A stretch of 64,000 bases of DNA from Verrucomicrobiota bacterium (GTDB lineage Bacteria; Verrucomicrobiota; Verrucomicrobiia; Limisphaerales; UBA1096), in NCBI GenBank assembly GCA_014382705.1, contig JACNJE010000133.1:15964-79963 (forward strand). The letters run 5' to 3'. Shown piece by piece: positions 85 to 62,420 of this stretch. The position numbers and the translations under genes are program-made. Each line of letters starts with the position of its first letter. The stretch's first letter is position 1. Under the pieces are notes generated by a model. The model ran no database searches. It was given only the letters and a program-made list of their open reading frames with translations, and was not told the origin of the DNA.

Positions 85-3000
85 ATGATTCGCCGCTTCA
101 CCCTTCTTGCGCTTGGCCTCGGCCTGCTGCCGTTCGCCGCGCTTGGCCAAGCGCCCGCCAAGCCAACCCGGGCAACCGTCGTCACGCCCGCTGTCAGGGT
201 GAAGCCGGGCGTGCCCGCGAAACCGATACGCGCCCTCCCGGCGAAGGCACCCCAGCCAACGGCCACTCCCGACCGTGGTGACCCACCGCCGCCACTCAAG
301 GCGGCCAAGCCGGAGACGCCGCAGGAAAAACTGCACGCCGCGTTGACGGCGGTGAAGTTTGACCGCACGCCGGACGGCATCCTCGACGCGCTCGACGCGT
401 TGACAAAAAAAACCGAACCACAAAAGGAAAAGGCCGAGGCGGCGGCGGAGCGGTTCCGGCTGCTCGCCAATGCCGGAATTTGGGGGGAATTGGGCGAACT
501 CATCCGGTCGCTGCCGTTCGACGGCTCCGCCGAGAAGGCGTACCGCCACCTCATCACCGCCCTGCTCCGACCGCCCTCAACCCGTCCCGCGCCCACGATG
601 CCGAGCGGCATGCCGGCCATGCCGGTCGGTGCCCCGGTGCCACCGAAACCCACCAACAAGCCGCGCCCGATGCTCACGCAGGAGGATTTTGTCGAGATTT
701 TGAAACTGGCCCCGGCCGAGCCCAACGAGACCGATGTCGCCGCGCTGGGCAATCTGCTGCGTGGCGTGGGCCAGCCGAATTTGTCGCGCCTGGCCGAACG
801 GCTCGAGGCCGGCGTCGGCCAGTTCGGCGGCGACACGCCGGACGGCCGCAAGCGCGCCGCGCAACTGCTGCAGCCGTTGGCGAACAAATCCCAAGCCCGG
901 ATCGCGCTGAAGTTTGTGCCGGAGAGCGATGACGATTGGGCGCTCGAGATGCGGGCCAAGCTGCTCACCGAGGTTTGGCTCAGCAAACCCAGCCCCGCCA
1001 ACTTGTCCGCCGCGTGGCAGGCCAACGAAAAACTGATCGCCACCATCGACGACGACGCCAAGCGGCTCGACGGCATCAAGCGCGGCTTCACGCTCGTCGC
1101 GAAACTGCCCAAGACGACAGCCGACGACTGGATGAGCCGGCAATTCCGCGAGGGCGGCTCCGGGCTGAAACTGATCCAGCTCGTGCAGTCCGACGTGCAG
1201 CGCAATATTCGCAGCACCAACTTCACCGCGCGTGGCGAAAACCTGCGCAGCCTCAAGCAGATCGTCGGCGCGCTGCTTGCCGAAGCCGGCAGCGACTTGG
1301 CCAAGTGGCAACTCCCGCTGACCATCGCCGCCGAGGCGTGGCTCATCGAGGCCGAAAACACGGTGAACAATTTCCGCCCCACCCTCAACCGCAGCAACCC
1401 GATGGTCTACAATCCAGTTTACGAGCAGCAACGGATGTTGGCCCAGCAGAATTCCAGCCGCTACAAGCCACTTCAACCGGCCATCCTTCTTGAGCACGCC
1501 CCCGGCGACGCGTGGCTCGCCGCCCTGCCGGGAAGCCGCCGCGCCCGTGCCATGGCGGCGCTTGCCGAGACGCTGCTCAAGGCCCGGAAAATCGTCGAGG
1601 CCCTCGCCGCGATCGAGCGCTTGGCCAAGCACGACCCGAGAATAGCCAACTTGATTGCCAACACACTTTTGTCCTCCTGGGCGCAGGCCCGTAACCCCAA
1701 CCGCGGCGCGCCGCCGCGCATGTCCAATATCGGCATGCCGATGTACATCCCGTCACGGCCAAGCGGCACGCCCCTCACCCGCGCCAAGCAGAAACGCAAC
1801 CTTCGCGAGCTGGGCGAAATCCTCGTGCGCCTGGCCAAGCTGCCAATCGATCCGCCCAAGCCGCAGGCTGTCGTCGCCGCGTTCGAGGGCGCGCACAGTT
1901 TCGCCGAGGTGTACAAGCTCGACGACATTCGCGCGGTGTTCGGCGAGCCGGAAAAAATGCCGGTTGAGTCGCTGGCCACGCTGGTGAACTCGATGCGCCA
2001 GCGCCTGGCCACCTCATGGCGCGCGCCGCAGGTTCAGCAACAGGCCGGCACCAAGCGCGGTGATTCGCAGATCAACGCCGAGGTGCTTGCCGGTTACGAC
2101 ACGCTGCTGGCGCTGCTCGACGCCGGGCTTGCAGCCAAGCCGGATGTTTGGCAACTCCGGCTGCAGCAGGCCGCCGCGAACTTCGACCTCGCCGAGTACC
2201 AGTACGGCAACAAGGCCGATCTCGACGTGTACGTGAAGCACCGCGAGGCGGCGTTCGACGGCTTCAGCGAGGCCGCCGCGCTGTACACGCTGCAAACCGC
2301 CGCCGCCGCCGACAAGCCCAGCGCGCTCGTCTTTCAGCTTTGGTTCAACGCCAACCTCGGCGCGAGCGACCTGTCGTACGTCACCCGGCAGCAGATCCCG
2401 GAGATCGGCAACCTGCAGAAAATCCGTGACGCCATCCTCGTGCTGCCGGACTCGGAGGGTCACCTGAAGGCGTTCGGCGAGTCGGTGACCAACACGTCGC
2501 GCCAGCTCACGCCGGAGTTGAAGCCGCGCTACCTCCGCGCCTCGCTCGCCGTGCTCGAGGGTCATCCCGCCGGCGAGCCGGCCCGCGAACTGGTGCAGCA
2601 TTACGACGATTTGCTCGACGAGGTGGAACTGGTCGCGCGCATTGACGGCAGCGACGCGATCGGCCACACGGTGCCGTTCGGGCTGTTCATCGGCCTGCGG
2701 CACACGAGCGACATCGAGCGCGAGGCCGGCGGCTTTTCGCGCTACCTCGTCGGCGGCAGCAGCACCGGCACGCCGTATTTTTACCCGCGCTACCCCGGCC
2801 AGCGGCAGGCGCCGCGAGACGATCTCGAGGAGCATCTCGGCGAAAAACTCGGTGAGAATTTCGAGGTGCAGTCGATCACGTTTCACGACAACAAAATCCA
2901 GTCGCGCACCGTCGGCCAGCCGGGCTGGCGCGAGACGCCGCTGGCCTACGTGCTGCTCAAGGCAATGGACGCCTCGGTCGACCGCATCCCGGAACTGCAG

Positions 3001-3819
3001 ATGGATCTCGATTTTTACGACTCGCTTGGCCCAGTGCTGTTGCCGGTGACCACCGCGACGCAGATTGTCGATGCCCGCCCTGTGGCCGCCCCCGCCCGGC
3101 CGGTGGACAAGCTGGAACTGACGCAGACGCTCGACGCCCGCCTCGCCGGTGAAAACGCGGAACTGACGCTCGAGCTGCACGCCACCGGCAAGGGGTTGAC
3201 GCCGTCGCTCGACAAGCTCGTCGCGCTCGACATTCCCGGATTCGACATCGCCAAGACCGACGATCAAGGATTGTCGGTCGCGCGGGTCGAGTCGGGCGCG
3301 TCGGGCGTCAACGCCGTGAGCGAACGCACTTGGCTGCTCACGCTCAAGCCAAGCGGCGACGCCGGCGACTCGCTCGCGTTCAAGTTTCCGCAACCGACCG
3401 GCTTGGTGGCCAAGACCGTTTTCAAGCAATTCAGCGACGCCGACCTCGTGGAGGTGGAGAGCGAACTGGCGCTGGCCGGGCTGGTGCTGAATCCGCCGCC
3501 GGTTTGGCCGTGGATCGCTGGTGGCGCGGTGACACTGCTGCTTGGCCTTGGCGCGTGGCGCGTGGCCAAGCGCGACGATGGCCAGATTGCAACACCGGTT
3601 TACCGGGTGCCGGAGGAGTGCACGCCGTTCGCCGTCATCGATCTGCTGCAACGCATCGATGCCGCCCCGCCGAAGTCGCTGGCGGCCTCCCATCGCGACC
3701 AGCTGCAGGGCACCATTCGTGAACTCGAGCAAATCCACTTTGCGCCCGGCGCCACGCAGGCCAACGGCCACGGTGACTTGCAGGCCATCGCCCACGACTG
3801 GGTCGGCAAGGTGAGCTGA
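85..3819 (+). CDS. Large secreted/membrane-anchored protein of unknown function (1244 aa)
   Basis: ATG at 85 is preceded by a purine-rich AAAGGAA. The N-terminus looks like a signal peptide (MIRRFTLLALGLGLLPFAALGQA) and is followed by a Pro-rich linker. The long body has ordinary amino-acid composition, unlike the Arg/Ala/Pro-rich shadow ORFs on the opposite strand. One TM-like helix sits near the C-terminus (WPWIAGGAVTLLLGLGAW), followed by a tail of about 100 aa. No family recognised. Confidence 0.75.
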   Translation: MIRRFTLLALGLGLLPFAALGQAPAKPTRATVVTPAVRVKPGVPAKPIRALPAKAPQPTATPDRGDPPPPLKAAKPETPQEKLHAALTAVKFDRTPDGILDALDALTKKTEPQKEKAEAAAERFRLLANAGIWGELGELIRSLPFDGSAEKAYRHLITALLRPPSTRPAPTMPSGMPAMPVGAPVPPKPTNKPRPMLTQEDFVEILKLAPAEPNETDVAALGNLLRGVGQPNLSRLAERLEAGVGQFGGDTPDGRKRAAQLLQPLANKSQARIALKFVPESDDDWALEMRAKLLTEVWLSKPSPANLSAAWQANEKLIATIDDDAKRLDGIKRGFTLVAKLPKTTADDWMSRQFREGGSGLKLIQLVQSDVQRNIRSTNFTARGENLRSLKQIVGALLAEAGSDLAKWQLPLTIAAEAWLIEAENTVNNFRPTLNRSNPMVYNPVYEQQRMLAQQNSSRYKPLQPAILLEHAPGDAWLAALPGSRRARAMAALAETLLKARKIVEALAAIERLAKHDPRIANLIANTLLSSWAQARNPNRGAPPRMSNIGMPMYIPSRPSGTPLTRAKQKRNLRELGEILVRLAKLPIDPPKPQAVVAAFEGAHSFAEVYKLDDIRAVFGEPEKMPVESLATLVNSMRQRLATSWRAPQVQQQAGTKRGDSQINAEVLAGYDTLLALLDAGLAAKPDVWQLRLQQAAANFDLAEYQYGNKADLDVYVKHREAAFDGFSEAAALYTLQTAAAADKPSALVFQLWFNANLGASDLSYVTRQQIPEIGNLQKIRDAILVLPDSEGHLKAFGESVTNTSRQLTPELKPRYLRASLAVLEGHPAGEPARELVQHYDDLLDEVELVARIDGSDAIGHTVPFGLFIGLRHTSDIEREAGGFSRYLVGGSSTGTPYFYPRYPGQRQAPRDDLEEHLGEKLGENFEVQSITFHDNKIQSRTVGQPGWRETPLAYVLLKAMDASVDRIPELQMDLDFYDSLGPVLLPVTTATQIVDARPVAAPARPVDKLELTQTLDARLAGENAELTLELHATGKGLTPSLDKLVALDIPGFDIAKTDDQGLSVARVESGASGVNAVSERTWLLTLKPSGDAGDSLAFKFPQPTGLVAKTVFKQFSDADLVEVESELALAGLVLNPPPVWPWIAGGAVTLLLGLGAWRVAKRDDGQIATPVYRVPEECTPFAVIDLLQRIDAAPPKSLAASHRDQLQGTIRELEQIHFAPGATQANGHGDLQAIAHDWVGKVS
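139..154. repeat. Perfect 16-bp copy of the iterated palindrome GCGCTTGGCCAAGCGC (inside a CDS, read as A-L-G-Q-A)
   Basis: Read directly from the sequence. It is its own reverse complement. Confidence 0.95.
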
Positions 3820-3828
3820 CCGCCGCCG

Positions 3829-4758
3829 ATGCCTCCAACGCGCATCCTGCTCATCGCCAACCCAGAGGCCGGGCGGCACCGGGGGGAGCGCCGGTTGGCC
3901 GAGGCGCAGGCCCAACTCGGGGCGCTTGGCCAAGTGGTGACCCCCGCGCTGACTGAATCCCCCGGGCACGGCTCCCGCTTGGCCAAGGCAAACGCCCCCG
4001 ACTTCGAGATCGTCGCCGCGCTGGGCGGCGACGGCACGGTCAACGAGGTGGCCAACGGACTGATGGCCGTCGAGCCGGGCGAGCGCCCCGCCCTCGCCGT
4101 GCTGCCGGTCGGCACTGGCAACGACGTTGCCCTGACCTTCGGCTTGGCCAAGTTCGGGACGGCCCTCGCCGCCTTGGCCAACGGCAACACCCGGACGCTC
4201 GACATCGTCCGCGTGCAATTGGTGCGGGACGGGGAACCGATCACGCGGCACGCGCTGCTTTTTGCCGCCGCCGGGTTCGCCGCCGAGGTAATCCGCAAAA
4301 CCGGGCCGTGCGTGAAGCGATTTTTTGGGCGGCGATTCAGTTATTCAGTCGGGCTGTTCCGCGCGCTGGCCGGCTATCGCGCGCCGGAGTTTTCGGTGCA
4401 GTGGGACGGCGGCAAACGGTCGGGCCGGATGTTTCAGGTCTGCGCCGGCAACACCGAGTTTGCTGCGGGCGGCGTGATGCGCGTCTCCCCCGGCGCGCGG
4501 CCGGACGACGGCCTGCTCAACATCAGCCTGGTGGACGCGCTGGGCCGGCTGCAGATCGTGCGGCGGTTCCCCAGCATCCTCAGCGGAAGTTACGTCGAGG
4601 ACGAACGCGTCGACTACTTCACCGGAAAACGCCTCGAGATCGATGCCAAGCCAACGGCCGAACTTCAGGCCGACGGCGACATCATCGGCACCACCCCCGC
4701 CACGATCGAGCTGCTGCCGGGCGCGCTGCGCCTGGTCGTGCCACCGCAAAACTCATAA
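3829..4758 (+). CDS. Diacylglycerol/lipid kinase family protein (YegS/BmrU-like)
   Basis: Carries the GGDGTVNEV and LPVGTGND motifs of the DAG-kinase catalytic domain. It starts 10 nt after the preceding stop, so it is probably co-transcribed. Confidence 0.85.
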   Translation: MPPTRILLIANPEAGRHRGERRLAEAQAQLGALGQVVTPALTESPGHGSRLAKANAPDFEIVAALGGDGTVNEVANGLMAVEPGERPALAVLPVGTGNDVALTFGLAKFGTALAALANGNTRTLDIVRVQLVRDGEPITRHALLFAAAGFAAEVIRKTGPCVKRFFGRRFSYSVGLFRALAGYRAPEFSVQWDGGKRSGRMFQVCAGNTEFAAGGVMRVSPGARPDDGLLNISLVDALGRLQIVRRFPSILSGSYVEDERVDYFTGKRLEIDAKPTAELQADGDIIGTTPATIELLPGALRLVVPPQNS

Positions 4759-4792
4759 TTGCCTTTGCCGTCCCGTTTGATAGCCTGACGCC

Positions 4793-4999
4793 ATGCGAGC
4801 GTTCACGGCTGTGGTTGAAAAATGTCAGGAAACCGGTTTTTTCGTGGGATACGTGCCCGGATTTCCCGGTGCACACACCCAAGGCGAAACCTTGGATGAA
4901 CTGCAAAGTAACCTTCAGGAAGTCATCGCCATGCTTTTGGAGGATGGAGAACCTCGGCTGAACACGGAATTTGTGGGTACGCAAACCGTAAGCGTATAA
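4793..4999 (+). CDS. hicB: HicB-like antitoxin (UPF0150 family)
   Basis: A 68-aa protein (MRAFTAVVEKCQETGFFVGYVPGFPGAHTQGETLDELQSNLQEVIAMLLEDGEP) typical of short HicB-like antitoxins. It lies 5 nt upstream of a HicA-like ORF, and the locus has locally lower GC. Confidence 0.75.
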   Translation: MRAFTAVVEKCQETGFFVGYVPGFPGAHTQGETLDELQSNLQEVIAMLLEDGEPRLNTEFVGTQTVSV

Positions 5000-5004
5000 C
5001 CCAA

Positions 5005-5230
5005 ATGTCCCGCATCCCCATCCTGAAACCACGAGAGGTGATGCGGATGTTGAACAACCTCGGATTTTCACAAGTTCGCCAACGGGGTTCCCACTGTCAG
5101 TTTCGACACGCTGACGGCAGACAAACGACTGTGCCAAATCACAAGGGCCGGGATATTTTCCCCGTTTTTGCTTCGTCAGGTTTCAAAAGATATTAACCTG
5201 ACAATCGAGAAGTTTATCGAAAGCCGTTGA
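5005..5230 (+). pseudogene. hicA: HicA mRNA-interferase toxin, frameshifted
   Basis: The N-terminal 52 aa (..KPREVMRMLNNLGFSQVRQRGSHCQFRHADGRQTTVPNHKGRDI) are HicA-like. After the T4 run at 5156-5159 the annotated frame gives an unrelated tail (FPVFASSGFKRY*). The +1 frame from 5159 instead reads SPFLLRQVSKDINLTIEKFIESR*, ending at 5230, which is the expected HicA C-terminus. Confidence 0.7.
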
Positions 5231-5245
5231 CCGCATTTGGCGGTC

Positions 5246-6565
5246 TCACGGGCCGCCGCCGCCGCTGGTGATGACCTGGAAGGTCGGCTTGACGATGGGA
5301 AGCGGGTTGACGCGGCCGAGGTTGTTGAGCCAGTTCCGCCCGCCGGCCTGGCCCTGCAACGCCGCCGCCCCCGGGCCGCCGAGCATCGACTCAATGCTGA
5401 GCGAAGTCGCGTTGTGAATCTGGCCCAGCTGCATCTGCCGCTCCTCGACGGACAGGCCGGTGTTCATGCGGATCTCCCTCGCAAGCTCCTCGGCGCTGCC
5501 CTTCATCTCGTACACCTGCGCGGAGATGTTTTCCCCCAGCCCCTGCCGCTCGGCGATCTTGTGGATCGACTTGTAGTCGTAGTCGACATGGCGCATGTAA
5601 TCCTGATAACGGTCGTCGCCCAGCGAGGTGCGAATCTGCTCGTTCATCTCCCACTCGGCGAGTTGGCGTACCTCGGCGTCGGCAGGTGAGATGCTCGAGC
5701 CGGGCACCGTGCCATACTCTTCGTCGAACCCCTTGCGCGCCGTGAAGATGTCGCGGAACTCCTCCTCACTCGGATCGAACCCATCCATCTGCAGTCTCAT
5801 GTTTGCCGCCGTGGGCGACTTGCGCAGATCGTACTCCGTTTTCTGCTCGGGGGTCAGCATCGTGGCGATACGGGTGTCGCGCTCCTGCCGCAACTGGCGG
5901 ATTTCGGCCATGTCCTGCGCGTCGCTCGCGCCTTGGGCCATTTTCCGGAGCAGCTCGCTGCCGAACTCCTGCTCGAGGCTGTTCAACTCAGCCTTGGTCT
6001 CCTCCGGGATGAAATCCATCGCGTAGCCGCTCTTGGCCTTCGATCGGGCGCGAGCCAACGGGCCGGGCCGGTTGATGGCCGTCACGCCCTCCGCTCCGAA
6101 CAACTCGCCGAGCAGTTGGTTTTTCTCATGGTCGAGCTTCGCCATCTGCGAGCGCGTGGCGCCGGACGGCTGGGAGAGGGTGCTGGGATGGCCGGTTTTC
6201 CAAAAATCCTTCCGAGCGGGGGCCTTGGTCAAGATTTCGGCCTTGCGCTGGTCGTACGCTTTGTCGAGATCCTGCTTCACGAGGTCGCGGATGGTTTCCT
6301 CCGGGCAGCCGATCCGGCGCAGGTTCTCGACATAGGTCTGGTAGTCGTCGGCCTCGACCTGGCTCCAGTGAAACGGCTCGACCTCGCGCACGACCCGCTC
6401 GACCGGCGCCGCTTGGCCAAGCGCTTGGCTTGGTGCGGCAGCAACCGGAAACTGCTGGCTTGATCCCGTTGACGGCTGCCGGTCGGTGGACAGCCAAAAC
6501 AGGCCAACGAGGCAAACCAGATTTGCCACGACCGAAATCAACAATAGCCGCTGGAGTTTCATCAA
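5246..6565 (-). CDS. Hypothetical membrane-anchored/secreted protein (439 aa)
   Basis: N-terminal hydrophobic anchor (MMKLQRLLLISVVANLVCLVGLFWLS), then a charged helical body with normal composition. No family recognised. Confidence 0.65.
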   Translation of the reverse strand: MMKLQRLLLISVVANLVCLVGLFWLSTDRQPSTGSSQQFPVAAAPSQALGQAAPVERVVREVEPFHWSQVEADDYQTYVENLRRIGCPEETIRDLVKQDLDKAYDQRKAEILTKAPARKDFWKTGHPSTLSQPSGATRSQMAKLDHEKNQLLGELFGAEGVTAINRPGPLARARSKAKSGYAMDFIPEETKAELNSLEQEFGSELLRKMAQGASDAQDMAEIRQLRQERDTRIATMLTPEQKTEYDLRKSPTAANMRLQMDGFDPSEEEFRDIFTARKGFDEEYGTVPGSSISPADAEVRQLAEWEMNEQIRTSLGDDRYQDYMRHVDYDYKSIHKIAERQGLGENISAQVYEMKGSAEELAREIRMNTGLSVEERQMQLGQIHNATSLSIESMLGGPGAAALQGQAGGRNWLNNLGRVNPLPIVKPTFQVITSGGGGP

Positions 6566-6683
6566 ACAGGAACGAAAATAACCATCACCGACGGGTGATG
6601 CAACTCATTGAAACAACGCCGCTTGGCCAAAGTTGCGCTTGGCTTGAGGGAGGCGCGATCGCCCGCTTGGCCACGCGCTTGGG

Positions 6684-7682
6684 TTATTCTTTCGTTGGGG
6701 CGGATCGCTTGAGGTAGCGGAAAAAGTCCGAGTCGGTGGAGAAAATTAGAGTGTCATCCTTGGACAGCGTGGATTCCAGAGTTTCCATAGTCTTGAGGAA
6801 CTCGTAAAACTCACGGGCCTCGGCATTTTGGTCGAATGCCTCGGCATAGATGGCCACCGCCTTGGCATCGGCCTCACCCATAATCTGTTGCTTCCCAAGA
6901 TAGGCCTTTGACGTGATTTCTTTTAACTCCTTCTGCTGCAATCCCTTGATATTTTCGGCCTCGGCGGCGCCCTCGGCACGAAATGTGGCGGAAATCCGGG
7001 AACGCTCTGAAATCATGCGATCAAAAATTGTCTTCTGAACATCCGGATTGTAGTTAATCCGCTTGAAGCGGAAATCCAGCAACTTGATGCCTAACTGCAA
7101 CAGGTTTTTGTTAGCGTCTTCTATCACCAACTGTGCCAGCTTCGAGCGGCCATGCGTGAACATCACTAACTGGGAACCGTCGTCCAGCACCTGATCATCA
7201 GCGACAACGCTCTCCCGTTGATGGGAACGGACGACCTCCACGAGATCGTTCGCCGCGATGACATTACGCACGGCACCGTCGAGTATGCCATTGAGTCTCA
7301 ACTTGGCAAAATCCACGTCTCCTAAATTTTTGTAGAAGATCTTGGCGTCCACGATACGCCATCGTGCGTAAGTGTCGATGTAGATGAACTTCTTTTCCTT
7401 GGTACTCACCTCGTTGGGCTTGCCGTCCCACTCGAGGTAGCGTTTATCAAACGAACGAACCTTATCTACAAACGGCACACGAAAATAATAACCAGCTTGG
7501 CTTGGTTTTTCCTCTCCATCTTTGGTCTCAGGGGCATTGATTGGTTCGCGTACCGTTTTGCCAAACCTCGTCACAAAAACTTGTTCTGTTTCATCGACGA
7601 TATAAATCGACGAGAAAAATGTGATAACCGCGATGAATATCCCGATTCCGAAAAAAGTTGGAATAAGTTGCTTAAACATCAT
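6684..7682 (-). CDS. hflC: Protease modulator HflC (SPFH/band-7)
   Basis: N-terminal TM segment plus an SPFH domain. The C-terminal ..STDSDFFRYLK resembles the HflC C-terminus as I recall it from E. coli. It overlaps hflK by 4 nt (ATGA). GC is clearly lower than in the flanks. Confidence 0.9.
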   Translation of the reverse strand: MMFKQLIPTFFGIGIFIAVITFFSSIYIVDETEQVFVTRFGKTVREPINAPETKDGEEKPSQAGYYFRVPFVDKVRSFDKRYLEWDGKPNEVSTKEKKFIYIDTYARWRIVDAKIFYKNLGDVDFAKLRLNGILDGAVRNVIAANDLVEVVRSHQRESVVADDQVLDDGSQLVMFTHGRSKLAQLVIEDANKNLLQLGIKLLDFRFKRINYNPDVQKTIFDRMISERSRISATFRAEGAAEAENIKGLQQKELKEITSKAYLGKQQIMGEADAKAVAIYAEAFDQNAEAREFYEFLKTMETLESTLSKDDTLIFSTDSDFFRYLKRSAPTKE

Positions 7683-8683: not shown

Positions 8684-8729
8684 GACTCAAAGAGGCCGAG
8701 TCTGCTGGGAGCCATTGCTGGTGGCGAGT

Positions 8730-11659: not shown

Positions 11660-11665
11660 TTCAAA

Positions 11666-52945: not shown

Positions 52946-53052
52946 GCCAAGCGGGAAGCGCCCGCGTGCCGCCTTGGGCGCGGGAGGGGCAAGTTCCACC
53001 TTGCCCGTTTCGATGTTAATTGGGACGAGGTGGAACTCGTCCCTCCCAAAAG

Positions 53053-54297: not shown

Positions 54298-54349
54298 GGC
54301 GGAGGGGTGTAACAGAAATGCAGCCGATGGGAAACGCAAATCACCAATC

Positions 54350-54365
54350 GCGCTTGGCCAAGCGC
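54350..54365. repeat. Perfect 16-bp palindrome copy, intergenic (helicase-methyltransferase divergent spacer)
   Basis: Read directly from the sequence. Confidence 0.95.
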
Positions 54366-54388
54366 CCGGCCAAGGCTAAAACGCCTGC

Positions 54389-55195
54389 GTGGAAATCACC
54401 CAGGACCACAACCGCCGCGTCTGGGACGAACGCGCCCGGCACGGCCTGCTGCACACGCGAACCGCGCGAGACGACGAGTTCGCCGACCCGCTGAAGGCCA
54501 TCAACGGCCGGGGCTGGATCGACGGCGGGCTCGAGGACAAACGGGTTCTCTGCCTCGCCGGCGGCGGCGGGTTGCAGGCACCGCTTTACGCCGCCGCCGG
54601 GGCCAAGGTGACGGTGGTGGACATCAGCCCGGCGATGCTCGAGCAGGATAAACGTGTTGCCCGCGAGCGCGGTCTCGAACTGCAGACCATCGCCGCGTCG
54701 ATGGACGATCTGCCGATGCTCGCCGACGCGTCGTTCGACCTTGTCACCCAGCCGGTCAGCACCTGCTACGTGCCAAGCTTGGCCAAGGTTTACGACGGGA
54801 TCGCCCGCGTGCTGCGCGTCGGCGGGCAGTACCTCAGCCAGCACAAACAGCCGCTCAACCTCCAAGCTGCGCCGACGCCGTTCCCGAACGGCTACGCCGT
54901 CACCGAGGGTTATTATGCCACGGGGCCGGTGCCGCCGCTGCACGGCGAGTTCGAGCATCGGGAAAAGGGCGCGCTCGAGTTCGTGCATCGCTGGGAGGAA
55001 CTGGTCGGCGGACTGTGCCGCGCCGGCTTCGTGATCGAGGATGTTGCCGAGCCGAGGCACGGCGATCCCGCCGCCGAGCCGGGAACGTTCCGGCATCGCA
55101 GCCAATACATTCCACCGTACGTCGCCATCAAGGCGCGTCGTGTTGCCACCCCCGTGCTTGGCCAAGCGGCGGCGGCCGGCATCGTCATGCCGTGA
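54389..55195 (+). CDS. Class I SAM-dependent methyltransferase
   Basis: Motif I VLCLAGGGGLQAPLYAAAGAKVTVVDIS. Substrate unknown. Confidence 0.8.
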   Translation: MEITQDHNRRVWDERARHGLLHTRTARDDEFADPLKAINGRGWIDGGLEDKRVLCLAGGGGLQAPLYAAAGAKVTVVDISPAMLEQDKRVARERGLELQTIAASMDDLPMLADASFDLVTQPVSTCYVPSLAKVYDGIARVLRVGGQYLSQHKQPLNLQAAPTPFPNGYAVTEGYYATGPVPPLHGEFEHREKGALEFVHRWEELVGGLCRAGFVIEDVAEPRHGDPAAEPGTFRHRSQYIPPYVAIKARRVATPVLGQAAAAGIVMP

Positions 55196-55237
55196 AACGG
55201 CTTGGCCAAGCCGCAGGCCAACGGTAGCTTGGCGGCC

Positions 55238-57355
55238 ATGTTGATTCGCATCGCACTGTTTATTGTCGCCGGCACTCTTGCCGCCTGTTCCACCCCAAAA
55301 AATACCAGCACCCCCGCCGGGTTCTCCGGCGACTGGGCGGAGTTCAAGCGCTTGGCCAAGCGCAACGGCACGCAGGTCTCGCTGCCGCCGTTTGAGACCA
55401 CGCCGCAGGCCTCGCTCGACGCCGTCGGCGCAGCCATCGCAGCAGCCGACAAGCGGCTCGACGCCATCGGCACGATCAAGCCAAGCGAGGCGACCTTCGA
55501 TAACACGCTCGGCGCGATCGACGATCTGGCGTTTGACCTGTCGCTCGTGGCCAACCGCACCTACATGCTCAAGGAAACCAGCGAGAACGCCGAGCACCGC
55601 GCCCAGGCCACCGAGGCAATCAAGCGGTTCGACGAGTGGGCCGTCGGCCTCGACTACCGCGAAGATGTTTATCGCGTGATCAAGGCGTACGCCGACTCGA
55701 AGCCCAAGCTGAGCGGCGAGGCCAAGCGACTGCTCGAACAGACGCTGCGCGACTACCGCCGGGCCGGGTTGCACCTGGCCAAGGCCGAGCGGGATGAGGT
55801 TGAGCAACTCCGCAAGCAACTTTCCGCCGCGACGACCGAGTTTCGCACCAACATCACCAATGCCAAAAAGGAACTGAAGTTCACCGCCGCACAACTCGAG
55901 GGGGTGCCGGGGAGTTTCCTCGAGCAGGTCAAGACCGGCGACGACGAATACACGCTGCAGGCCAACGTGACGTTTCACTACCTCAACGTCATGCGCAGTG
56001 CCAAGCCGGAGGCGACGCGCAAGCGGTTCTCCGGCGAACGCAAGCGGCTCGCCCGCGAGCAAAACATTCCGCTGCTAAAAACGGTCCTGCAACTCCGTGC
56101 CACCATCGCGGCCAAGCTCGGCTACAAGACATGGGCCGACTACCGCTGCGAAGTCAAGATGGCCGGCAATGGCACGACGGCGCGCGAGTTTTTGATGAAC
56201 CTCAAGAGCGGCCTCGAGCCGAAGTGGCAGGCCGAGCTCGCGCAGTTCAACACGCTGAAACGCCGCGAGACCGGCGACCCCGACGCCACCCTGAAAATGT
56301 GGGATGCCTTTTACTACATGAACCTGCTGAAGAAGGAAAAGTACTCCGTGGACACCGAGCAGCTTCGCGTGTTTTTCCCGTACGAACAGACGCTGCACGG
56401 AATGTTTCGCGTGTACGAACGCATCTTCGGCCTGAAGATTGTGGCGTCCACCGCGCCGTACAAATGGCACGAGCAAGTGACGCTGCACCTTGTTTACGAC
56501 GCCGCCACCGGCAACCCGCTGGGTGCGCTGTACCTCGACATGTTCCCGCGCGACGGCAAGTACAATCACTTCGCGATGTTCCCGCTGATCTCCGGAAAAC
56601 GGCTGCCGGACGGCACCTACCAGCGGCCCACCGTCGCGCTGATTTGCAACTTCCCCACGCCGGGGAAGGACACCCCGTCGCTACTCTCGCACGACAACGT
56701 CGAGACGTTGTTCCACGAGTTTGGCCACGCGCTGCACGGCATCCTCACGCAGACTCGGTTCACGCGTTTCGCCGGAACGAGCGTGCCGCGCGACTTCGTC
56801 GAGGCGCCGTCGCAGATGCTCGAGAACTGGATTTGGGACAAGACTGTGCTCGACTCCTTCGCCGCCGACTACCGCGATCCGTCGAAAAAAATCCCCGAAG
56901 CCGTGCTGGCAAAACTGAAGGAGGCAAAGAAAGCCACCGTCGCCCGGCACTACCGCGGCCAATTGTCGTACGGGCTGGTTGACCTGACTCTGCACTCGCT
57001 GACAGAGGAGGAAGCCAAGATCGTCGAGCCGGTGGCGTTGTCCAACCAGATCACCGAGGCCGTCTATCTCAAGCCGCAAGAGAACACGTCATTCGTCGGC
57101 TACTTCGGCCATCTCATGGGCTACGACGCCGGCTACTACGGCTACGCCTGGGCCGACTCGATTTCCGCCGACATGGCCACGGTTTTTGAAAACGCGCCGG
57201 AGCGCTACTTCGACGCAACAGCCGGACAGCGACTGCGGCGGGAGATTTACGAAGTGGGCGACTCTCGCGATGTCAGCGAGTCGATCGAGAAATTCCTCGG
57301 CCGCCCCCGCTCGCTCAAGCCGTTCCTCCAAGACCTCGGCATCCTCGACGAATAG
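55238..57355 (+). CDS. M3 family zinc metallopeptidase (oligopeptidase/Dcp-like) lipoprotein
   Basis: HEFGHALH zinc motif and M3 length. Lipobox MLIRIALFIVAGTLAAC. The track start at 55202 is a TTG inside a palindrome copy. Confidence 0.88.
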   Translation: MLIRIALFIVAGTLAACSTPKNTSTPAGFSGDWAEFKRLAKRNGTQVSLPPFETTPQASLDAVGAAIAAADKRLDAIGTIKPSEATFDNTLGAIDDLAFDLSLVANRTYMLKETSENAEHRAQATEAIKRFDEWAVGLDYREDVYRVIKAYADSKPKLSGEAKRLLEQTLRDYRRAGLHLAKAERDEVEQLRKQLSAATTEFRTNITNAKKELKFTAAQLEGVPGSFLEQVKTGDDEYTLQANVTFHYLNVMRSAKPEATRKRFSGERKRLAREQNIPLLKTVLQLRATIAAKLGYKTWADYRCEVKMAGNGTTAREFLMNLKSGLEPKWQAELAQFNTLKRRETGDPDATLKMWDAFYYMNLLKKEKYSVDTEQLRVFFPYEQTLHGMFRVYERIFGLKIVASTAPYKWHEQVTLHLVYDAATGNPLGALYLDMFPRDGKYNHFAMFPLISGKRLPDGTYQRPTVALICNFPTPGKDTPSLLSHDNVETLFHEFGHALHGILTQTRFTRFAGTSVPRDFVEAPSQMLENWIWDKTVLDSFAADYRDPSKKIPEAVLAKLKEAKKATVARHYRGQLSYGLVDLTLHSLTEEEAKIVEPVALSNQITEAVYLKPQENTSFVGYFGHLMGYDAGYYGYAWADSISADMATVFENAPERYFDATAGQRLRREIYEVGDSRDVSESIEKFLGRPRSLKPFLQDLGILDE
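55348..55363. repeat. Perfect 16-bp palindrome copy inside the M3 peptidase gene (read as R-L-A-K-R)
   Basis: Read directly from the sequence. Confidence 0.95.
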
Positions 57356-57371
57356 CGCTTGGCCAAGCAGC

Positions 57372-59549
57372 TCAACCAGCGGCTTTGTTCAGGGCGCTCA
57401 GGACGATATCGGGAGTCAGCAACTCGGGCAGCATCTCCGGTTGTGATGTTTTGTCGCGCGGAAAAACCAGCACCAGTGGCACACCCGCCCTGCCCCGGCG
57501 GTGCAGTTCTTTCGTAATATAATCCGGTCGGCGCGTGTAGTCGGCCCGGAACACCTTAAAATTTTTCTTCGCCAACAGGGTGCGCACCGACTCGATGTCG
57601 AGGCTCGTTTTTTTGTTGGCAATGCAGGTGAGGCACCACTTGGCCGTGAAGTCCACCAGCACCGGTTGGCCCGCTTCGCGCGCCTCGGCCACGGCCTCCA
57701 GTGACCAGCGGTGCCAACGGATGCCGCCGGGGAAATCCTGCACCACGTCGGCCTTGGCCTGTGACGGATCAACCGGCGTTCGCCACTGCATCTGCCCCTC
57801 GAGGCCGAACACGACCCCGCCCAACGCCAGCGCCCCAGCGATGCCTAGCGCCAAGCCGCGCCGCTTGATGCCGCGCTGAAAAAACTCGCCGAACACCCAA
57901 GCGGCCATCGCAATCACGGTCAGGAAAATGCCGAACCACAATACCCGGCCGCCGTAATAGTCGATGCTCACCGTGAACAGCCAAATGCCCGTGGCCAACA
58001 TCGGGAAACCCATCGCCACCTTGAATCGCTCCATCCACGACCCCGGCTTGGGCAGGAAACGCAGCAGCTTGGGGTTCCAACTCAGCACGACGTACGGGAA
58101 CGCGAGGCCAAGCGCGACGGTGACAAACATCAGCACGATCACGGCGGCGGTTTGCGTGAAGGCAAAGCCCAGCGCCGGCGCGAGGAACGGTGCCGTGCAA
58201 GGCGTCGCCAAAACCGTGGCCAGCACGCCGTTGAAAAACGCGCCCCCTGCCCCCTCCCGGCCCGCCACGGACCCGGCCGCAACGCCAACCGAGCCGAGCG
58301 TGACCTCAAACAGGCCGAACAGATTCAGCGCCACCAGCAGGATGAGGACGGTCAGCAACACGACGAACTGCGGGTTCGACATCTGCATGCCCCAGCTTGC
58401 CAGTTCGCCCGCGCTCTTCACGCCGATCACCACGCCGGCCAGCACCAAAAACGACACGACCACCCCCGCGCCGTACAGCATTCCGAGCAGCCGCACGCGC
58501 GCCGGCGACTCCCTGCTTTGGTTGACGAACCCGAGAATCTTCAGCGAGATCACCGGCAGCACACACGGCATGACGTTCAAAATCAGTCCGCCGATGAAGG
58601 CGTACAGCAACATCCGCCAGAGCGGCCTGTCGGCTCCGGGCGGGGTCTGCAAAACCGTCGTCCCGGCATCGCCCGAGGTGAGGGTGTAGATCGGGAACTT
58701 GACCTCGAATGCTTCTGTCTTGTCGTGATCCTTCAGGTTGCGAACGGCCAAGCCGGAGACTTCGCTTGGCCAAGCGCCCTCAAACTTCATCACCGTTTTT
58801 TTGATGCGAACGTTTGCAGCGCCGGCGGCGGCCACCTCGCTTTCCGGCGACACCTCAAACCCGTCGGACGGCAGTGCGAAAAAATCGGCGTCGGTGCCCG
58901 CTTGGCCAGCGTCAAACTCGATCAGCAACGATCGCTCATCCTCCTTGGCCTCGCCATCCCACCGAGCGCTGACGGCCAACTTCGCATCGACTTTCGGGAG
59001 TTTCTGTTTTGCGGCATCCAGCTTGGCGGCGTCCGCCGAGCGTGCGTCTCTCCCTGCGATCGTCAACATTGCACTCACCTGCTGGTCGCGCGGGATGCAG
59101 AGTTCCTTGCACTCAAGCCAACTGACCTTGCCGGAGATCGTCGCTTGGCCAAGCGCGGCGTCAGCGCCGATGGTGAGCGGCACGAGCAGGATTGTTTTGT
59201 CGTGGTAACCGTAGCCGATCGAGCCAAGCGCGGTGAACTTCTCCGGCGTTGGCCACTGGATCGGCCCGGCACTCACGCCGTTGGGCAGCGTCCATTCGAC
59301 GTCGGTCGCGATGCCGGCCTCGCCGGGGTTGATCCAGTACGTGTGCCAGCCGTCGTCCATTGTCAACTCCAGCCCGGCCATCACCGTCGAGCCCGGCTTA
59401 GCCTCGGAGTGGGACAGCAGCAGCTTGGCCACGGTCGCCGGCTTGGCGATGCCGCCGGCCTGGCCGCCGCCGAACGGGTCGTCAAACTGCGCGTTGAGGT
59501 TGCCTGCAAGTGACAGCAGGAAAAGGTAACCGAGACCACTGGCTCTCAT
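57372..59549 (-). CDS. dsbD: Thiol:disulfide interchange protein DsbD-like
   Basis: Signal peptide, an N-terminal DsbD-alpha-like domain, a central TM domain with conserved Cys (NVMPCVLPV, LATPCTAPFL), and a C-terminal thioredoxin domain (WCLTC). Confidence 0.88.
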   Translation of the reverse strand: MRASGLGYLFLLSLAGNLNAQFDDPFGGGQAGGIAKPATVAKLLLSHSEAKPGSTVMAGLELTMDDGWHTYWINPGEAGIATDVEWTLPNGVSAGPIQWPTPEKFTALGSIGYGYHDKTILLVPLTIGADAALGQATISGKVSWLECKELCIPRDQQVSAMLTIAGRDARSADAAKLDAAKQKLPKVDAKLAVSARWDGEAKEDERSLLIEFDAGQAGTDADFFALPSDGFEVSPESEVAAAGAANVRIKKTVMKFEGAWPSEVSGLAVRNLKDHDKTEAFEVKFPIYTLTSGDAGTTVLQTPPGADRPLWRMLLYAFIGGLILNVMPCVLPVISLKILGFVNQSRESPARVRLLGMLYGAGVVVSFLVLAGVVIGVKSAGELASWGMQMSNPQFVVLLTVLILLVALNLFGLFEVTLGSVGVAAGSVAGREGAGGAFFNGVLATVLATPCTAPFLAPALGFAFTQTAAVIVLMFVTVALGLAFPYVVLSWNPKLLRFLPKPGSWMERFKVAMGFPMLATGIWLFTVSIDYYGGRVLWFGIFLTVIAMAAWVFGEFFQRGIKRRGLALGIAGALALGGVVFGLEGQMQWRTPVDPSQAKADVVQDFPGGIRWHRWSLEAVAEAREAGQPVLVDFTAKWCLTCIANKKTSLDIESVRTLLAKKNFKVFRADYTRRPDYITKELHRRGRAGVPLVLVFPRDKTSQPEMLPELLTPDIVLSALNKAAG

Positions 59550-59610
59550 CGCGGTTTAGGATGCCCTCGTGGCACGGCCTGTTCAATTCCCGACGGGCCA
59601 ATCGCCAATA

Positions 59611-61719
59611 TTATACAATCTCGGTCGGGCATTTTGGGAGGGAGTCGATGAAGATTTTTCCGTAGCGCTTGGTCAACACGCGGCTGTCGAGCACGACGAC
59701 GATGCCCTCGTCGCTCTTGGTGCGGATGAGCCGGCCGACGCCCTGCCGGAATTTCAGCACTGCCACCGGCAGCGAAAACTCCATGAACGGATTGCCGTCG
59801 CGAGCCTCGATTGCCTCGATCGCTGCCTCGACCAACGGATGATCCGGCACGGCAAACGGCAGCCGAGTGATGATGACATTTTGCAGCGCCTCACCCGGCA
59901 CGTCGACGCCCTGCCAAAAACTGTCCGTGCCGAACAGTACCGACTGCTCGTCGCGCTTGAACCGCTCAAGCATCGTCGAGCGCGGCACGCCGGCACCCTG
60001 CACGAGACAGTCCCAGCCGTGATCGGCGAAGAAGCCCTCAAGTTCCTCCGCCACCTCGCGCATCAGCTTGAAGTTGGTGAACAGCACGAAGGCGCGGCCA
60101 CCGCTCATTTCGATGAAGTGGCGGAGCTGCCCTGCGAGGGCATCGCGATATTCCGGCTCGCGCGGGTCCGGCATCTTGCCGGCGATGTACAGTTTCATCT
60201 GCCGCTCGTAGTCGAACGGCGAGCCGACCTGCAGTGCGTTGACCTGTTCCGCGCCGACTTGGCCAGCGAAATAATTGAGTCCGTTTTTTTGGGGTGAGGT
60301 GGTACTCGCCCCTCCCGAGGTGGAATCACTCAAGGCCAGGGTGGCGCTCGTCAGCACGACCGGCGAACTGCAGCGGAAGAGGCGACGGCGCAGATGAACC
60401 GCCACATCCACCGGCGCAGCGTTGAGCGACAAGGTCATCCCGGCCTTGCCGGATTTTTCCACCCAGTAAACGTGCTCGTCCGACGCCTGCGAGAGGAACA
60501 ACAGCACACCGTCACGCAGCTCGCCAACGCGCCGGTTGAACTCCGCCAACTCCTGCCCGGTGTCGGCGTCATCGATCCCGTCGCGGGCCTGAACCAGCGC
60601 CTCGCGCACCCGCTGGAGCGACAGCGTGAGCGTGTCGTCGACCAGACCGGGGTTGCGCACGCGCAACTCCTTCCAAATGCGGTTTTTGTTCCCGCCAAAT
60701 TTGCTGGCCTTGGCCTGCTTCTCGCCGAGTTCATCGCACGCCACCTCGAGTTCGCCGAAGAACTGCTCCATCGCTGCCGAGGCGTCCTCGACCATCCGCG
60801 TCGCCTTCGCCTCGCGCAGCAGGCCAAGCAGCCCCTTGTTGGTTTTCGGGTTCCACAGCCGCTGCAGGTTGAACCGAATCTGGCCGCTCGAGACGCTCAC
60901 GCCCATGTGCCTTGAAGCGACCGGGCCGACGTTGTGCGCCTCGTCGAGAATCACGAAATCGTTTTTGAACAGCACGCCCTCCTCCTCACGGGGCTCATCG
61001 TCGTCGCGCCCGTCGTCGCCGAGCAGGCTGAAAAACAAAGAATGGTTCAGCACCAGCACATCGGCGGAGAGAATCCGGCTGCGGGCACGTTGGTAAAAAC
61101 AGGTCTGCCCCGTTTTCCCAAAGTCGGAGCCGTGGCCGCACAGCTTGGTGGAGCAGAGGCCGCGCTCCGAGTTGACGAGGTCCCACACCTTCGGGTCGGG
61201 CGTGATGTCGAAATCGGACAGGCTGCCGTCGGTGGTCTCCTTCGCCCATTCGGTGATGCGTGCAAGTTCCTCAATCTCGGAGGAGGTCAGCAGTGTCGCC
61301 GCCTGTTGCCGCGCGCGCTGCAATCGCCGGGTGCAGAGATAGTTCCCACGGCCCTTGAGCATCGTGTAAGAAAACTCCACCGGCAGGATCTGTTTCAGCA
61401 TCGGCAGATCCTTCTCAGTGAGCTGCTCCTGCAGGTTGATCGTGTGGGTCGAGATGACTGCTTTTTTATTTTGGCCGACCGCGTGAAGGATGGCCGGGAC
61501 GAGATAGGCCAGGCTTTTGCCAACGCCGGTGCCGGCCTCGACGATGAGGTGCTCGCTACCCTTCAGCGCCTTGGCCACGGCGACAGCCATCTCCTGTTGC
61601 TCGGGTCGGAACTCGAAATTGTTCGCCTGCGACAACCGGCCGGTCTCGGAAAAAAACGCCTCGATCTCGACAACGAGGTCGAGCCCGGTGCTCTGCTCCT
61701 CATCGATGAACCGGATCAC
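59611..61719 (-). CDS. dinG: DinG/Rad3-type ATP-dependent DNA helicase
   Basis: Walker A AGTGVGKS and DEAH box (ILDEAHN). C-terminal helicase motifs (LFGTDSFWQGVD, ..RLIR). Confidence 0.88.
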   Translation of the reverse strand: MIRFIDEEQSTGLDLVVEIEAFFSETGRLSQANNFEFRPEQQEMAVAVAKALKGSEHLIVEAGTGVGKSLAYLVPAILHAVGQNKKAVISTHTINLQEQLTEKDLPMLKQILPVEFSYTMLKGRGNYLCTRRLQRARQQAATLLTSSEIEELARITEWAKETTDGSLSDFDITPDPKVWDLVNSERGLCSTKLCGHGSDFGKTGQTCFYQRARSRILSADVLVLNHSLFFSLLGDDGRDDDEPREEEGVLFKNDFVILDEAHNVGPVASRHMGVSVSSGQIRFNLQRLWNPKTNKGLLGLLREAKATRMVEDASAAMEQFFGELEVACDELGEKQAKASKFGGNKNRIWKELRVRNPGLVDDTLTLSLQRVREALVQARDGIDDADTGQELAEFNRRVGELRDGVLLFLSQASDEHVYWVEKSGKAGMTLSLNAAPVDVAVHLRRRLFRCSSPVVLTSATLALSDSTSGGASTTSPQKNGLNYFAGQVGAEQVNALQVGSPFDYERQMKLYIAGKMPDPREPEYRDALAGQLRHFIEMSGGRAFVLFTNFKLMREVAEELEGFFADHGWDCLVQGAGVPRSTMLERFKRDEQSVLFGTDSFWQGVDVPGEALQNVIITRLPFAVPDHPLVEAAIEAIEARDGNPFMEFSLPVAVLKFRQGVGRLIRTKSDEGIVVVLDSRVLTKRYGKIFIDSLPKCPTEIV

Positions 61720-62420
61720 CCGGCGGCCTCCCGTTTTTCGACCCCCGCCAGCTCGGTTTTGTGTTTGACCCAGCGCCTGTCCGGCAGCACGCCGGTGAAG
61801 GTGACGTTCGGGTACAGCAGGCAGTCCCGGCCGATGATCGCGCCGGGGTTGAGCACGGCGTTGCAGCCGATCTCGGTCCGGTCGCCGATCAACGCGCCAA
61901 ACTTGGCCAAGCCGCTGTCGAGCGTCCCGGAGGCCGTGCGGACGTTGACGTTGCCACGGATCAGCCGGTAGTTGGACAGCATCGCGCCGGCGCCGAGGTG
62001 GACGCGGTGGCCCAGTACGGAGTCGCCGACGTAGTTGAAGTGCGGCACGTCGCAGCCGTTGAACAGCACCGCGTTTTTCAACTCGACCGCGTGACCGACC
62101 ACGCAGTCGTCGCCAACAATCACGTTGCCGCGCAGCGTCGCCCCGTGGCCGATGCAGCAGTTGCGGCCGATCCAGGCCGGCCCACGGATCAGCGCCCCTG
62201 CCTCGATCACCGTGCCTTCGCCGACGAACACATCACCCTCGATCACCGCCTGGGCGTGCGCTTGGCCAAGCTGTGCCACCCGCAGGGTGTCGCGAAGATA
62301 GTCGCCGATGCGCGGGAGCACCTCCCACGCCTGGCCAAGCGAGTCGAACAGGCTCGTGTGCTCCGTCTGGCCAAGGTCGAACAACGCCTCGGCTCGGGGG
62401 ATGTGTGATGCGGACTCCAT
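61716..62420 (-). CDS. Left-handed beta-helix (hexapeptide repeat) transferase
   Basis: Runs of hexapeptide repeats (..IGHGATLRGNVIVGDDCVVGHAVELKNAVLFNGCDV..). Its stop overlaps the dinG start by 4 nt. The probable start is MESASHIP at 62420. Confidence 0.7.
   Translation of the reverse strand: MESASHIPRAEALFDLGQTEHTSLFDSLGQAWEVLPRIGDYLRDTLRVAQLGQAHAQAVIEGDVFVGEGTVIEAGALIRGPAWIGRNCCIGHGATLRGNVIVGDDCVVGHAVELKNAVLFNGCDVPHFNYVGDSVLGHRVHLGAGAMLSNYRLIRGNVNVRTASGTLDSGLAKFGALIGDRTEIGCNAVLNPGAIIGRDCLLYPNVTFTGVLPDRRWVKHKTELAGVEKREAAG

Follow-up and report, generated by a model that had tools for sequence, protein, structure and literature searches.

The region analyzed here (the window) is a 64-kb stretch of contig JACNJE010000133.1 (positions 15,964 to 79,963) from a marine Verrucomicrobia genome (assembly GCA_014382705.1); it has a GC content of 62.8%, the GC content at third codon positions (GC3) in this genome is about 0.83, and 45 genes were called in the window with a codon-composition model. 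Thirty of these genes were scanned against Pfam, 25 giving a family match in the called frame, and the gene calls of the public assembly, which cover 21.7 kb of the window, were used as a check. Scattered over the window are 70 copies of the palindromic octamer TTGGCCAA (about 1.1 per kb), whereas dinucleotide-preserving shuffles yield 1.59 on average and never more than 5. Inside genes, the copies fall very unevenly among the three possible reading frames: most read TTG-GCC-AAx (frame 0; Leu-Ala-Lys or Leu-Ala-Asn), fewer read xTT-GGC-CAA (frame 1; almost always Leu-Gly-Gln), and very few read xxT-TGG-CCA-Axx (frame 2; Trp-Pro-Ser). Our analysis indicates that this skew is quite likely explained by a boost of the exact word at the DNA level, uniform across frames, multiplied by the ordinary coding baseline of each frame.

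With our own gene calls, 57 copies are intragenic, 34 of them in frame 0, 21 in frame 1 (20 Leu-Gly-Gln and 1 Ile-Gly-Gln), and 2 in frame 2. Adoption of the assembly calls (genes at 51548-52096 on the minus strand and 52172-52945 on the plus strand, and a start at 55238 for the M3 peptidase) in place of a doubtful call at 51569-52945 on the plus strand, wrong in its 5' portion, leaves 56 intragenic copies, split 32/22/2, and 14 intergenic ones (Table 1). An earlier note on this DNA, made from its letters alone, had counted about 52 intragenic copies in proportions of roughly 30/20/2, which is essentially right and slightly low (56-57 copies; 32-34/21-22/2); the only two Trp-Pro-Ser copies lie where it placed them, in an aminotransferase (HVAWPSAA) and in DsbD (EGAWPSEV). 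The recurrent pentapeptides that it reported are also real, RLAKR occurring six times against 0.04 expected from amino-acid composition and ALGQA nine times against 0.08.

Table 1. Copies of the palindrome in the window and the features associated with them
Feature	Position	Strand	Remarks
All exact TTGGCCAA copies	143..62434	.	n = 70
Exact 16-mer GCGCTTGGCCAAGCGC	139..154; further starts at 15581, 32389, 36111, 48069, 48625, 54350, 55348	.	8 in window
Frame 0, TTG-GCC-AAx	1297, 1621, 3979, 4144, 4174, 9346, 9385, 10449, 12222, 12264, 14445, 14580, 15585, 16461, 17765, 18407, 21416, 22769, 25307, 25613, 29391, 31977, 43330, 45460, 45748, 48073, 51373, 51648, 52694, 54779, 55352, 61903		32 copies
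Frame 1, xTT-GGC-CAA	143, 3926, 6413, 10568, 12488, 18147, 19628, 21322, 25465, 29539, 29911, 31948, 42810, 46772, 48629, 51309, 51605, 52037, 55158, 59145, 62262, 62427		22 copies
Frame 2, TGG-CCA	23721, 58766		2 copies
Intergenic	6623, 23095, 27760, 32393, 32405, 35328, 36115, 37741, 39643, 39655, 45302, 54354, 55202, 57359		14 copies
YegS/DAGK-family lipid kinase	3926..4181	+	4 copies (3926, 3979, 4144, 4174); Pfam
A-W-P-S in class-III aminotransferase	23721..23728	+	Frame 2; GTC GCT TGG CCA AGC GCG
Doublet GCGCTTGGCCAAGCGCTTGGCCAA	32389..32412	.	12-bp spacing; between convergent genes, 11 and 5 nt from stop codons
Second doublet	39636..39669 (copies 39640-39662)	-	12-bp spacing; 7 nt downstream of LysE-family stop codon
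ArgS L47-A48-K49	45460..45467	+	Tripeptide in 120/120 homologs examined; helix 43-50 (AlphaFold model)
ArgS L143-A144-K145	45748..45755	+	Relatives mostly L-A-R, conservative K/R position; helix 131-149 (AlphaFold model)
ArgS L484-G485-Q486	46772..46779	+	Relatives LDQ, LTQ, LSD, ISA or LAE; end of loop 471-486, before helix 487-496 (AlphaFold model)
A-W-P-S in DsbD	58766..58773	-	Frame 2; GGC GCT TGG CCA AGC GAA

Frame usage was compared with expectation both in the window and in 70 loci, 424 kb in total, taken from some 17 related marine Verrucomicrobia metagenome-assembled genomes (MAGs), with our own uncurated gene calls. The copies in the relatives split 206/109/9 among frames 0, 1, and 2 (63.6/33.6/2.8%); these loci were collected by a match to the 16-bp form of the palindrome, and the split without the copies so ascertained is 179/91/9, which leaves the result unchanged, and it is likewise unaffected by gene-length cut-off and GC class. 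The skew departs strongly from uniform usage in this larger sample (p ~1e-34 to 1e-40), and the observation of the earlier note is confirmed. The null of one third per frame on which that note relied is wrong, however, because any octamer in coding DNA has an uneven, frame-dependent baseline: independent codon usage alone predicts 1.37/0.47/0.024 copies in the window (74/25/1.3%; 1.18/0.41/0.024 after removal of the motif's own codons), against 34/21/2 observed on our own calls, and 9.16/3.50/0.35 copies in the relatives (70.4/26.9/2.7%). A tripeptide-aware expectation, obtained from the tri- and tetrapeptide frequencies of motif-free control proteomes and the synonymous codon choice of the clade, gives 73-78/21-24/1.9-2.8%.

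The pooled ratios of observed to expected copies (O/E) are 22.6 for frame 0 (95% confidence interval, 19.8-25.7), 33.0 for frame 1 (27.6-39.2), and 29.4 for frame 2 (14.7-52.6). These values do not bear out the strong filter that had been proposed, one tolerating Leu-Ala-Lys and Leu-Gly-Gln and nearly excluding Trp-Pro-Ser. Codon and tripeptide frequencies would put 1.3-2.8% of the copies in frame 2, which in fact holds 2.8-3.6%. In 41 unrelated genomes, a control without any drive, the 16-mers that occur in genes by chance are distributed 28/5/1. The frame skew is thus real, yet it is what codon and amino-acid usage predicts, and the Trp-Pro-Ser frame is enriched like the others; Trp-Pro-Ser copies are rare because Trp, CCA, and NNT codons are rare. 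The explanation that the earlier note had named as its own refutation, that codon and peptide frequencies account for the bias, holds for the skew between frames and fails for the absolute abundance of Leu-Ala-Lys and Leu-Gly-Gln.

We propose that a force acting on the DNA word itself, rather than on the encoded peptides, would raise the odds of the exact sequence some 20- to 30-fold (about 25-fold) wherever it can occur. Within genes, this uniform boost would multiply a baseline probability that differs strongly by frame. The baseline of frame 0 would be high, TTG-GCC-AAR combining common residues with a preferred Ala codon; that of frame 1 would be lower, since xTT-GGC-CAA depends on a codon ending in T and on the less used Gln codon; and that of frame 2 would be lowest, since xxT-TGG-CCA-Axx combines a codon ending in T with the rare Trp and the least used Pro codon. 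The observed split (about 60/37/3%) would then be the coding baseline carried upward. The force itself, we infer, may be selection for, or molecular drive toward, the exact word, as discussed for the cyanobacterial highly iterated palindrome HIP1 and for DNA uptake sequences.

A longer palindrome of 14-16 bp, (G)CGC-TTGGCCAA-GCG(C), has the octamer as its core; its full form is GCGC-TTGGCCAA-GCGC. Among the 70 copies, 58 extend to the 10-mer CTTGGCCAAG, 34 to the 12-mer GCTTGGCCAAGC, 22 to the 14-mer CGCTTGGCCAAGCG, and 8 to the 16-mer GCGCTTGGCCAAGCGC. A position-by-position profile shows the GCGC flanks to be symmetric and alike in all three frames and in the intergenic copies, with an information content of zero beyond ±8 bp in every copy class. 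Over-representation in this genome is about 25-fold (22- to 33-fold by the codon model in the window and the 424 kb of relatives). Because the one-mismatch classes are low, enrichment peaks sharply at the exact word: in the window and its relatives there are 523 exact copies against 39 expected from a third-order Markov model that is itself inflated by the motif (13-fold), and the twelve one-mismatch classes mostly stand at 0.8- to 2-fold, the two that reach 3- to 4-fold being raised in motif-poor control genomes as well. Distances between copies in the window are near-exponential (mean, 903 bp; coefficient of variation, 0.97), 64 kb being short for periodicity on the kilobase scale.

A larger mobile element as the carrier of the word was rejected, the flanks being uninformative beyond ±8 bp. 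A repeat of the REP, BIME, or MITE type (repetitive extragenic palindrome, bacterial interspersed mosaic element, or miniature inverted-repeat transposable element), which would be longer than 20 bp, intergenic, and conserved outside the palindrome, fits neither the intragenic position of about 80% of the copies nor the zero information past ±8 bp, and scans of the whole window with Rfam models and for tRNAs gave no matches. The viral contigs scanned for the 16-mer yielded 27 matches, nearly all of them single chance copies, and no motif-rich virus; a megablast search of the ArgS-UvrA region against plasmids returned generic uvrA similarity only. The open-access literature searched contains no description of TTGGCCAA, of its extensions, or of such a palindrome in Verrucomicrobia, the matches being primers and unrelated sequences.

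Outside genes the word is about three times denser: 14 copies lie in 5.07 kb of non-coding DNA (2.8 per kb; 0.07 copies expected from composition) and 56 in 58.9 kb of coding DNA (0.95 per kb). The lower density in coding DNA, about one third of the intergenic value, reflects general coding constraint. In the proteome, the encoded tripeptides are strongly over-represented, with O/E of 4.4-5.0 for LAK, 4.3-4.7 for LGQ, and 2.7-4.2 for WPS (16-26 for AWPS), and neighboring tripeptides (LAR, LGE, VAK, and the like) mostly stand at 0.8-1.5. Residues in the motif core are 57% and 50% identical to those of the motif-poor sisters, against 68% and 67% for random tripeptides of the same genes, a weak effect (p = 0.06 and 0.01). 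What is left of a protein-level filter is therefore generic coding constraint, a modest flank effect, and a mild preference for less conserved residues, features already described for uptake sequences (PMC2817400) and HIP1 (PMC5861425). The proposal that copies are created at the DNA level and then filtered by the proteins accordingly stands in its first half, supported by enrichment in all frames and in intergenic DNA with shared palindromic flanks, and falls in its second, that of a frame filter specific to the motif.

Synonymous sites inside copies are conserved above background, evidence that the word is maintained at the DNA level. The window was compared with relatives L116, L067, and L077 (about 85-90% amino-acid identity; a small sample of about 30 kb of aligned DNA). 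Copies are intact in the relatives in 22 of 32 cases, against 37.5% of control octamers (p = 4e-4), and where the peptide is identical, in 20 of 27, against 52% of controls (p = 0.03). The codon CTT is kept at 9 of 9 sites inside copies and at 39% outside (p = 5e-4), CAA at 82% and 52%, and TTG at 65% and 45%, respectively; differences between species are mostly single synonymous changes (TTG/CTG, CAA/CAG). An earlier conservation test with L116 alone, in which 7 of 17 copies were kept, no better than controls, is superseded by this larger test with corrected gene calls.

Alignments show that copies arise both by codon choice on a pre-existing Leu-Ala-Lys or Trp-Pro and by amino-acid replacement at variable sites. 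ArgS provides examples of both, its two Leu-Ala-Lys copies lying in helices and its Leu-Gly-Gln copy at the end of a variable loop. Since the tripeptide at residues 47-49 is conserved in all homologs examined, the copy at 45460 was made purely by codon choice (of the motif-poor syntenic relatives, L120, GCA_964589935.1, has CTC GCC AAG and L121, GCA_023383055.1, CTG GCC AAA); the differing tripeptides of relatives at residues 484-486 show that this tripeptide was created by amino-acid replacement in a variable linker. In the DAGK-like lipid kinase, most relatives in the clade have L-G-H at 3926 and L-A-H at 4144, so the window lineage completed these copies by His-to-Gln and His-to-Lys replacements.

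Of the two frame-2 copies, that in the aminotransferase is kept in the L077 ortholog (VAWPSA), and its A-W-P-S aligns with P-F-G-N of the putrescine aminotransferase of Escherichia coli (4uox), which places it at a position variable among distant homologs. The GC-poor sisters have Q-W-P-V and E-W-P-S at the DsbD site, so that this copy sits on a Trp-Pro that was there before it. A further frame-2 copy is found in L077 but not in the window, in the counterpart of window gene 13, where TTGGCCAA (T-W-P-S) corresponds to TTGGGTGT (T-W-V-F) in the window; four adjacent bases differ, perhaps because a patch was replaced at once instead of base by base, or simply because the site evolves fast.

Hyper-abundance of TTGGCCAA is confined to one marine Verrucomicrobia clade (database labels Pedosphaera sp. 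and Verrucomicrobiales MAGs). Motif-rich species are represented, for example, by NYYJ01 (ARS81), DKGH01 (UBA6775), JASMKO01 (Arabian9_MAG_18), and JAKUOU01, and the samples behind ERZ24794642 and SRR29139952 are examples of marine metagenomes in which the clade is plentiful. A scan for the 16-mer over one genome per GTDB species found at least 112 loci; among the matches listed, 70 loci from the 17 or so marine MAGs carry 0.38-2.25 copies of the octamer per kb, and 41 loci, nearly all from other phyla, carry no more than 0.25 per kb, usually the single chance copy. ArgS of the window was found on marine metagenome contigs, and the nearest homologs that bear a name come from MAGs labelled "Pedosphaera sp." or "Verrucomicrobiota bacterium". 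Syntenic relatives, retrieved by way of ArgS homologs, have 0.65 copies per kb at 90% ArgS identity (GC about 61%), 0.33 at 87% (about 58%), 0.14 at 80% (42%), and 0.05 at 78% (40%), and two outgroups at 67-69% identity (62-63% GC) have none; the clade as a whole ranges from 0.33 to 2.25 per kb, and the closest syntenic relatives are L116 and L117. It follows from this gradient that the motif is a derived property of one sub-clade. The sister genomes L118 and L119 have the gene order of window positions 39670-62444 at 78-80% ArgS identity and a GC content of 40-42%, against 62% in the window, a very large shift inside one clade, and the GC-poor members have almost no copies of the motif.

Nine of the 14 intergenic copies (23095, 27760, 32393, 32405, 35328, 39643, 39655, 55202, and 57359) lie within 25 nt 3' of a stop codon, a zone covering about 23% of the non-coding sequence (binomial p = 0.001); no T-run of an intrinsic terminator accompanies these nine, which may be 3'-end hairpins or may occupy the only free positions in short spacers. 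Two copies exactly 12 bp apart (GCGCTTGGCCAAGCGCTTGGCCAAG) recur: of the 522 spacings between copies, 14 have this length, which is much more frequent than any other short one; two of these doublets are in the window (Table 1) and 12 beyond it, in L016, L024, L027, L038, L056, L078 (two), L094, L101, L110, and others. As RNA, the two copies of a doublet pair into a hairpin of about 9 bp: the doublet at 32389 has an 8-bp stem with flanking pairs (-16 kcal/mol), and that at 39636 is lengthened by flanking complementarity (-25.8 kcal/mol; z = -5.3 against shuffles). A copy on its own has only a weak fold (-5 to -7 kcal/mol, z near 0), and a terminator role for single copies was rejected, as no copy in the 19 kb scanned (22000-41000) fits a stem-plus-T-run pattern. 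A hairpin role for the doublets alone is possible.

Several gene calls around copies deserve mention. The copies at 15585-15592 and 55202-55209 supply the TTG taken as start codon of a 1308-amino-acid DUF7133 protein and of the M3 peptidase, respectively, and their status is ambiguous; gene starts beside copies are uncertain because the caller picks TTG codons within them. At 51548-52171, long open frames of similar GC3 (0.70-0.71) run on both strands, and the same three copies encode RLAKR, PLGQA, and RLANR on the plus strand and ALGQA, GLAKR, and AIGQA on the minus strand. The real gene at 51548-52096 is the minus-strand one (182 amino acids), since it is conserved in the sisters of 40% GC, as is the call at 52172-52945; the motif-rich antisense frame misled the composition-based caller. 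The stretch 37434-39669 is of lower GC (the 36-40 kb block averages 0.56) and contains two genes missed by our caller, 37843-38787 on the plus strand (314 amino acids, no Pfam match) and 38816-39187 on the minus strand (a Lumazine_bd_2 protein). Because both are absent from the otherwise syntenic L116 and L117, this stretch has the appearance of an insertion specific to the lineage, with glnA on one side and the LysE-family gene on the other.

Some observations weigh against a uniform boost on a coding baseline. Enrichment in frame 1 exceeds that in frame 0 by a factor of 1.4 to 2.6 (chi-square p = 0.02-0.0002). There is thus a second-order effect, and its direction is opposite to that of the proposed filter, the rarer frames 1 and 2 lying slightly above prediction. 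Of the frame-1 copies 42% have the exact 14-mer, as do 20% of those in frame 0 and 45% of the intergenic ones; the residual probably comes from the extended motif, A-L-G-Q-A (frame 1) being better tolerated than R-L-A-K-R (frame 0). The frame-2 estimate is based on 11 copies only, the gene calls in the 70 loci are our own and not curated, and the codon-usage baseline already embodies constraints of protein and translation, so that "codon usage" and a "coding-constraint filter" are not fully separable. Finally, no methyltransferase, repair, or competence gene is tied to the motif.

Candidate drivers of a DNA-level boost rank in the order of uptake and recombination, methylation and repair, and RNA hairpins, the last plausible for doublets only. 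The first would be biased DNA uptake followed by recombination, in which the word would serve as a signal and spread by molecular drive, its persistence shaped by coding constraint; we regard this as a possible, though doubtful, explanation. Paired uptake sequences form hairpins downstream of genes, and the doublets here are likewise hairpins just after stop codons. The density of about 1 per kb, the codon-tracking frames, the enriched tripeptides, and the less conserved residues match what is described for the uptake signal sequences (USS) of Pasteurellaceae and the DNA uptake sequences (DUS) of Neisseriaceae (PMC2817400), and HIP1 was recently proposed to have the same role (bioRxiv 10.64898/2026.06.24.733823). 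Known uptake sequences, however, are asymmetric and not palindromic, no competence machinery is linked to the motif in this uncultured organism known from metagenomes, and the weak halo of one-mismatch words fits strong maintenance rather than uptake specifically.

A driver based on methylation or repair, which we consider rather unlikely, would have an orphan methyltransferase give the site a function or a repair bias of the very-short-patch type regenerate it. Within the core of the palindrome lie TGGCCA and GGCC, sequences typically recognized by type II methyltransferases; orphan methyltransferases with internal sub-sites as targets are associated with HIP1 (PMC4390886); and synonymous sites in copies are conserved beyond background. 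On the other hand, the deamination-type variant TTGACCAA/TTGGTCAA shows no depletion (O/E 1.22, like other one-mismatch variants), and the specificity of 14-16 bp goes well past a methyltransferase site of 4-6 bp. A crude regular-expression scan of about 0.5 Mb of clade DNA, of low power, found no m5C or N6 DNA methyltransferase and one spurious match.

That copies arise equally in the three frames and that a motif-specific protein filter then removes Trp-Pro-Ser as intolerable is improbable. The very uneven absolute counts (32/22/2 in the window and 206/109/9 in the relatives) and the threefold lower coding density would agree with such a filter, as would the occupation of peptide-compatible sites, 11 of 29 in frame 2 against 240 of 377 in frame 0. 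The present data nevertheless largely refute it: enrichment in frame 2 is no lower than in the other frames, WPS and above all AWPS are over-represented in the proteome, and chance copies in genomes without the motif are skewed alike. A cause at the level of protein or RNA, with the DNA word a by-product of selection for Leu-Ala-Lys and Leu-Gly-Gln peptides or for an RNA hairpin, is very improbable: these tripeptides are helix-compatible (2 of 3 ArgS copies lie in modelled helices) and doublets fold stably by stop codons, but the same extended palindrome occurs in two unrelated peptides, in the third frame, and with enrichment in intergenic DNA, which argues against a peptide-level cause as a general explanation, the rare codons CTT, CAA, and CCA are used and conserved inside copies, single copies fold weakly and, in the 19 kb scanned, follow no terminator pattern, and about 80% of copies are intragenic.

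The frame skew is ordinary; it follows the rule known from USS, DUS, and HIP1, DNA-level enrichment multiplied by a codon baseline, and calls for no special intolerance of Trp-Pro-Ser. Of greater interest is a hyper-abundant palindrome of 14-16 bp outside the cyanobacteria, in an abundant uncultured marine lineage. We suggest, tentatively and as somewhat less than an even prospect, that a marine Pedosphaerales-like sub-clade has independently evolved an actively maintained system like HIP1 or uptake sequences on the 16-bp palindrome, one that forces rare codons and adds about one Leu-Ala-Lys or Leu-Gly-Gln per gene, its syntenic sisters being nearly or entirely without it. If so, it would be a second, phylogenetically independent system in which to find the gene or genes behind hyper-abundant palindromes, a question still open for HIP1 after 30 years; comparison of gene content between motif-rich and motif-poor close relatives could point to the responsible enzyme or uptake system.

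Dcm/Vsr sites (CCWGG) are over-represented in enterobacteria through very-short-patch repair. They resemble the word described here in being a short palindrome with a methyltransferase-type core, raised by a DNA-level process regardless of frame; they differ in that the effect here is far larger (20- to 30-fold), the specificity extends over 14-16 bp, and the deamination variant is not depleted. USS and DUS, too, occur at about 1 per kb, show a frame bias correlated with codon usage and enrichment of the encoded tripeptides, and favor poorly conserved residues (PMC2817400). In contrast to the present word, a perfect palindrome up to 16 bp, they are asymmetric and have an orientation; their tripeptide enrichment is about 2-fold, against 4- to 5-fold here, and their uptake specificity was shown experimentally, that of TTGGCCAA being hypothetical. 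Their paired copies share with our doublets the form of hairpins downstream of genes.

HIP1 (GCGATCGC, cyanobacteria) has an 8-bp palindromic core with conserved flanks, at about one copy per gene, as does the word studied here. It is likewise enriched in the three frames and in non-coding DNA, a comparison of related genomes shows its copies to be better conserved than control octamers, and the same holds for its constituent codons within the motif relative to those elsewhere (PMC5861425). The present core differs in containing no GATC or CGATCG sub-site and in its host phylum, Verrucomicrobia; its symmetric extension is longer (14-16 bp), its copies show no periodicity within the 64-kb window, a stretch short for the kilobase scale, and it is restricted to one sub-clade, syntenic sisters of 40% GC having almost none of it. 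Cognate orphan methyltransferases are known for HIP1 and none for TTGGCCAA. Because it departs from HIP1 in sequence and host, and from uptake sequences in its lack of asymmetry, the TTGGCCAA word is analogous to both without belonging to either.

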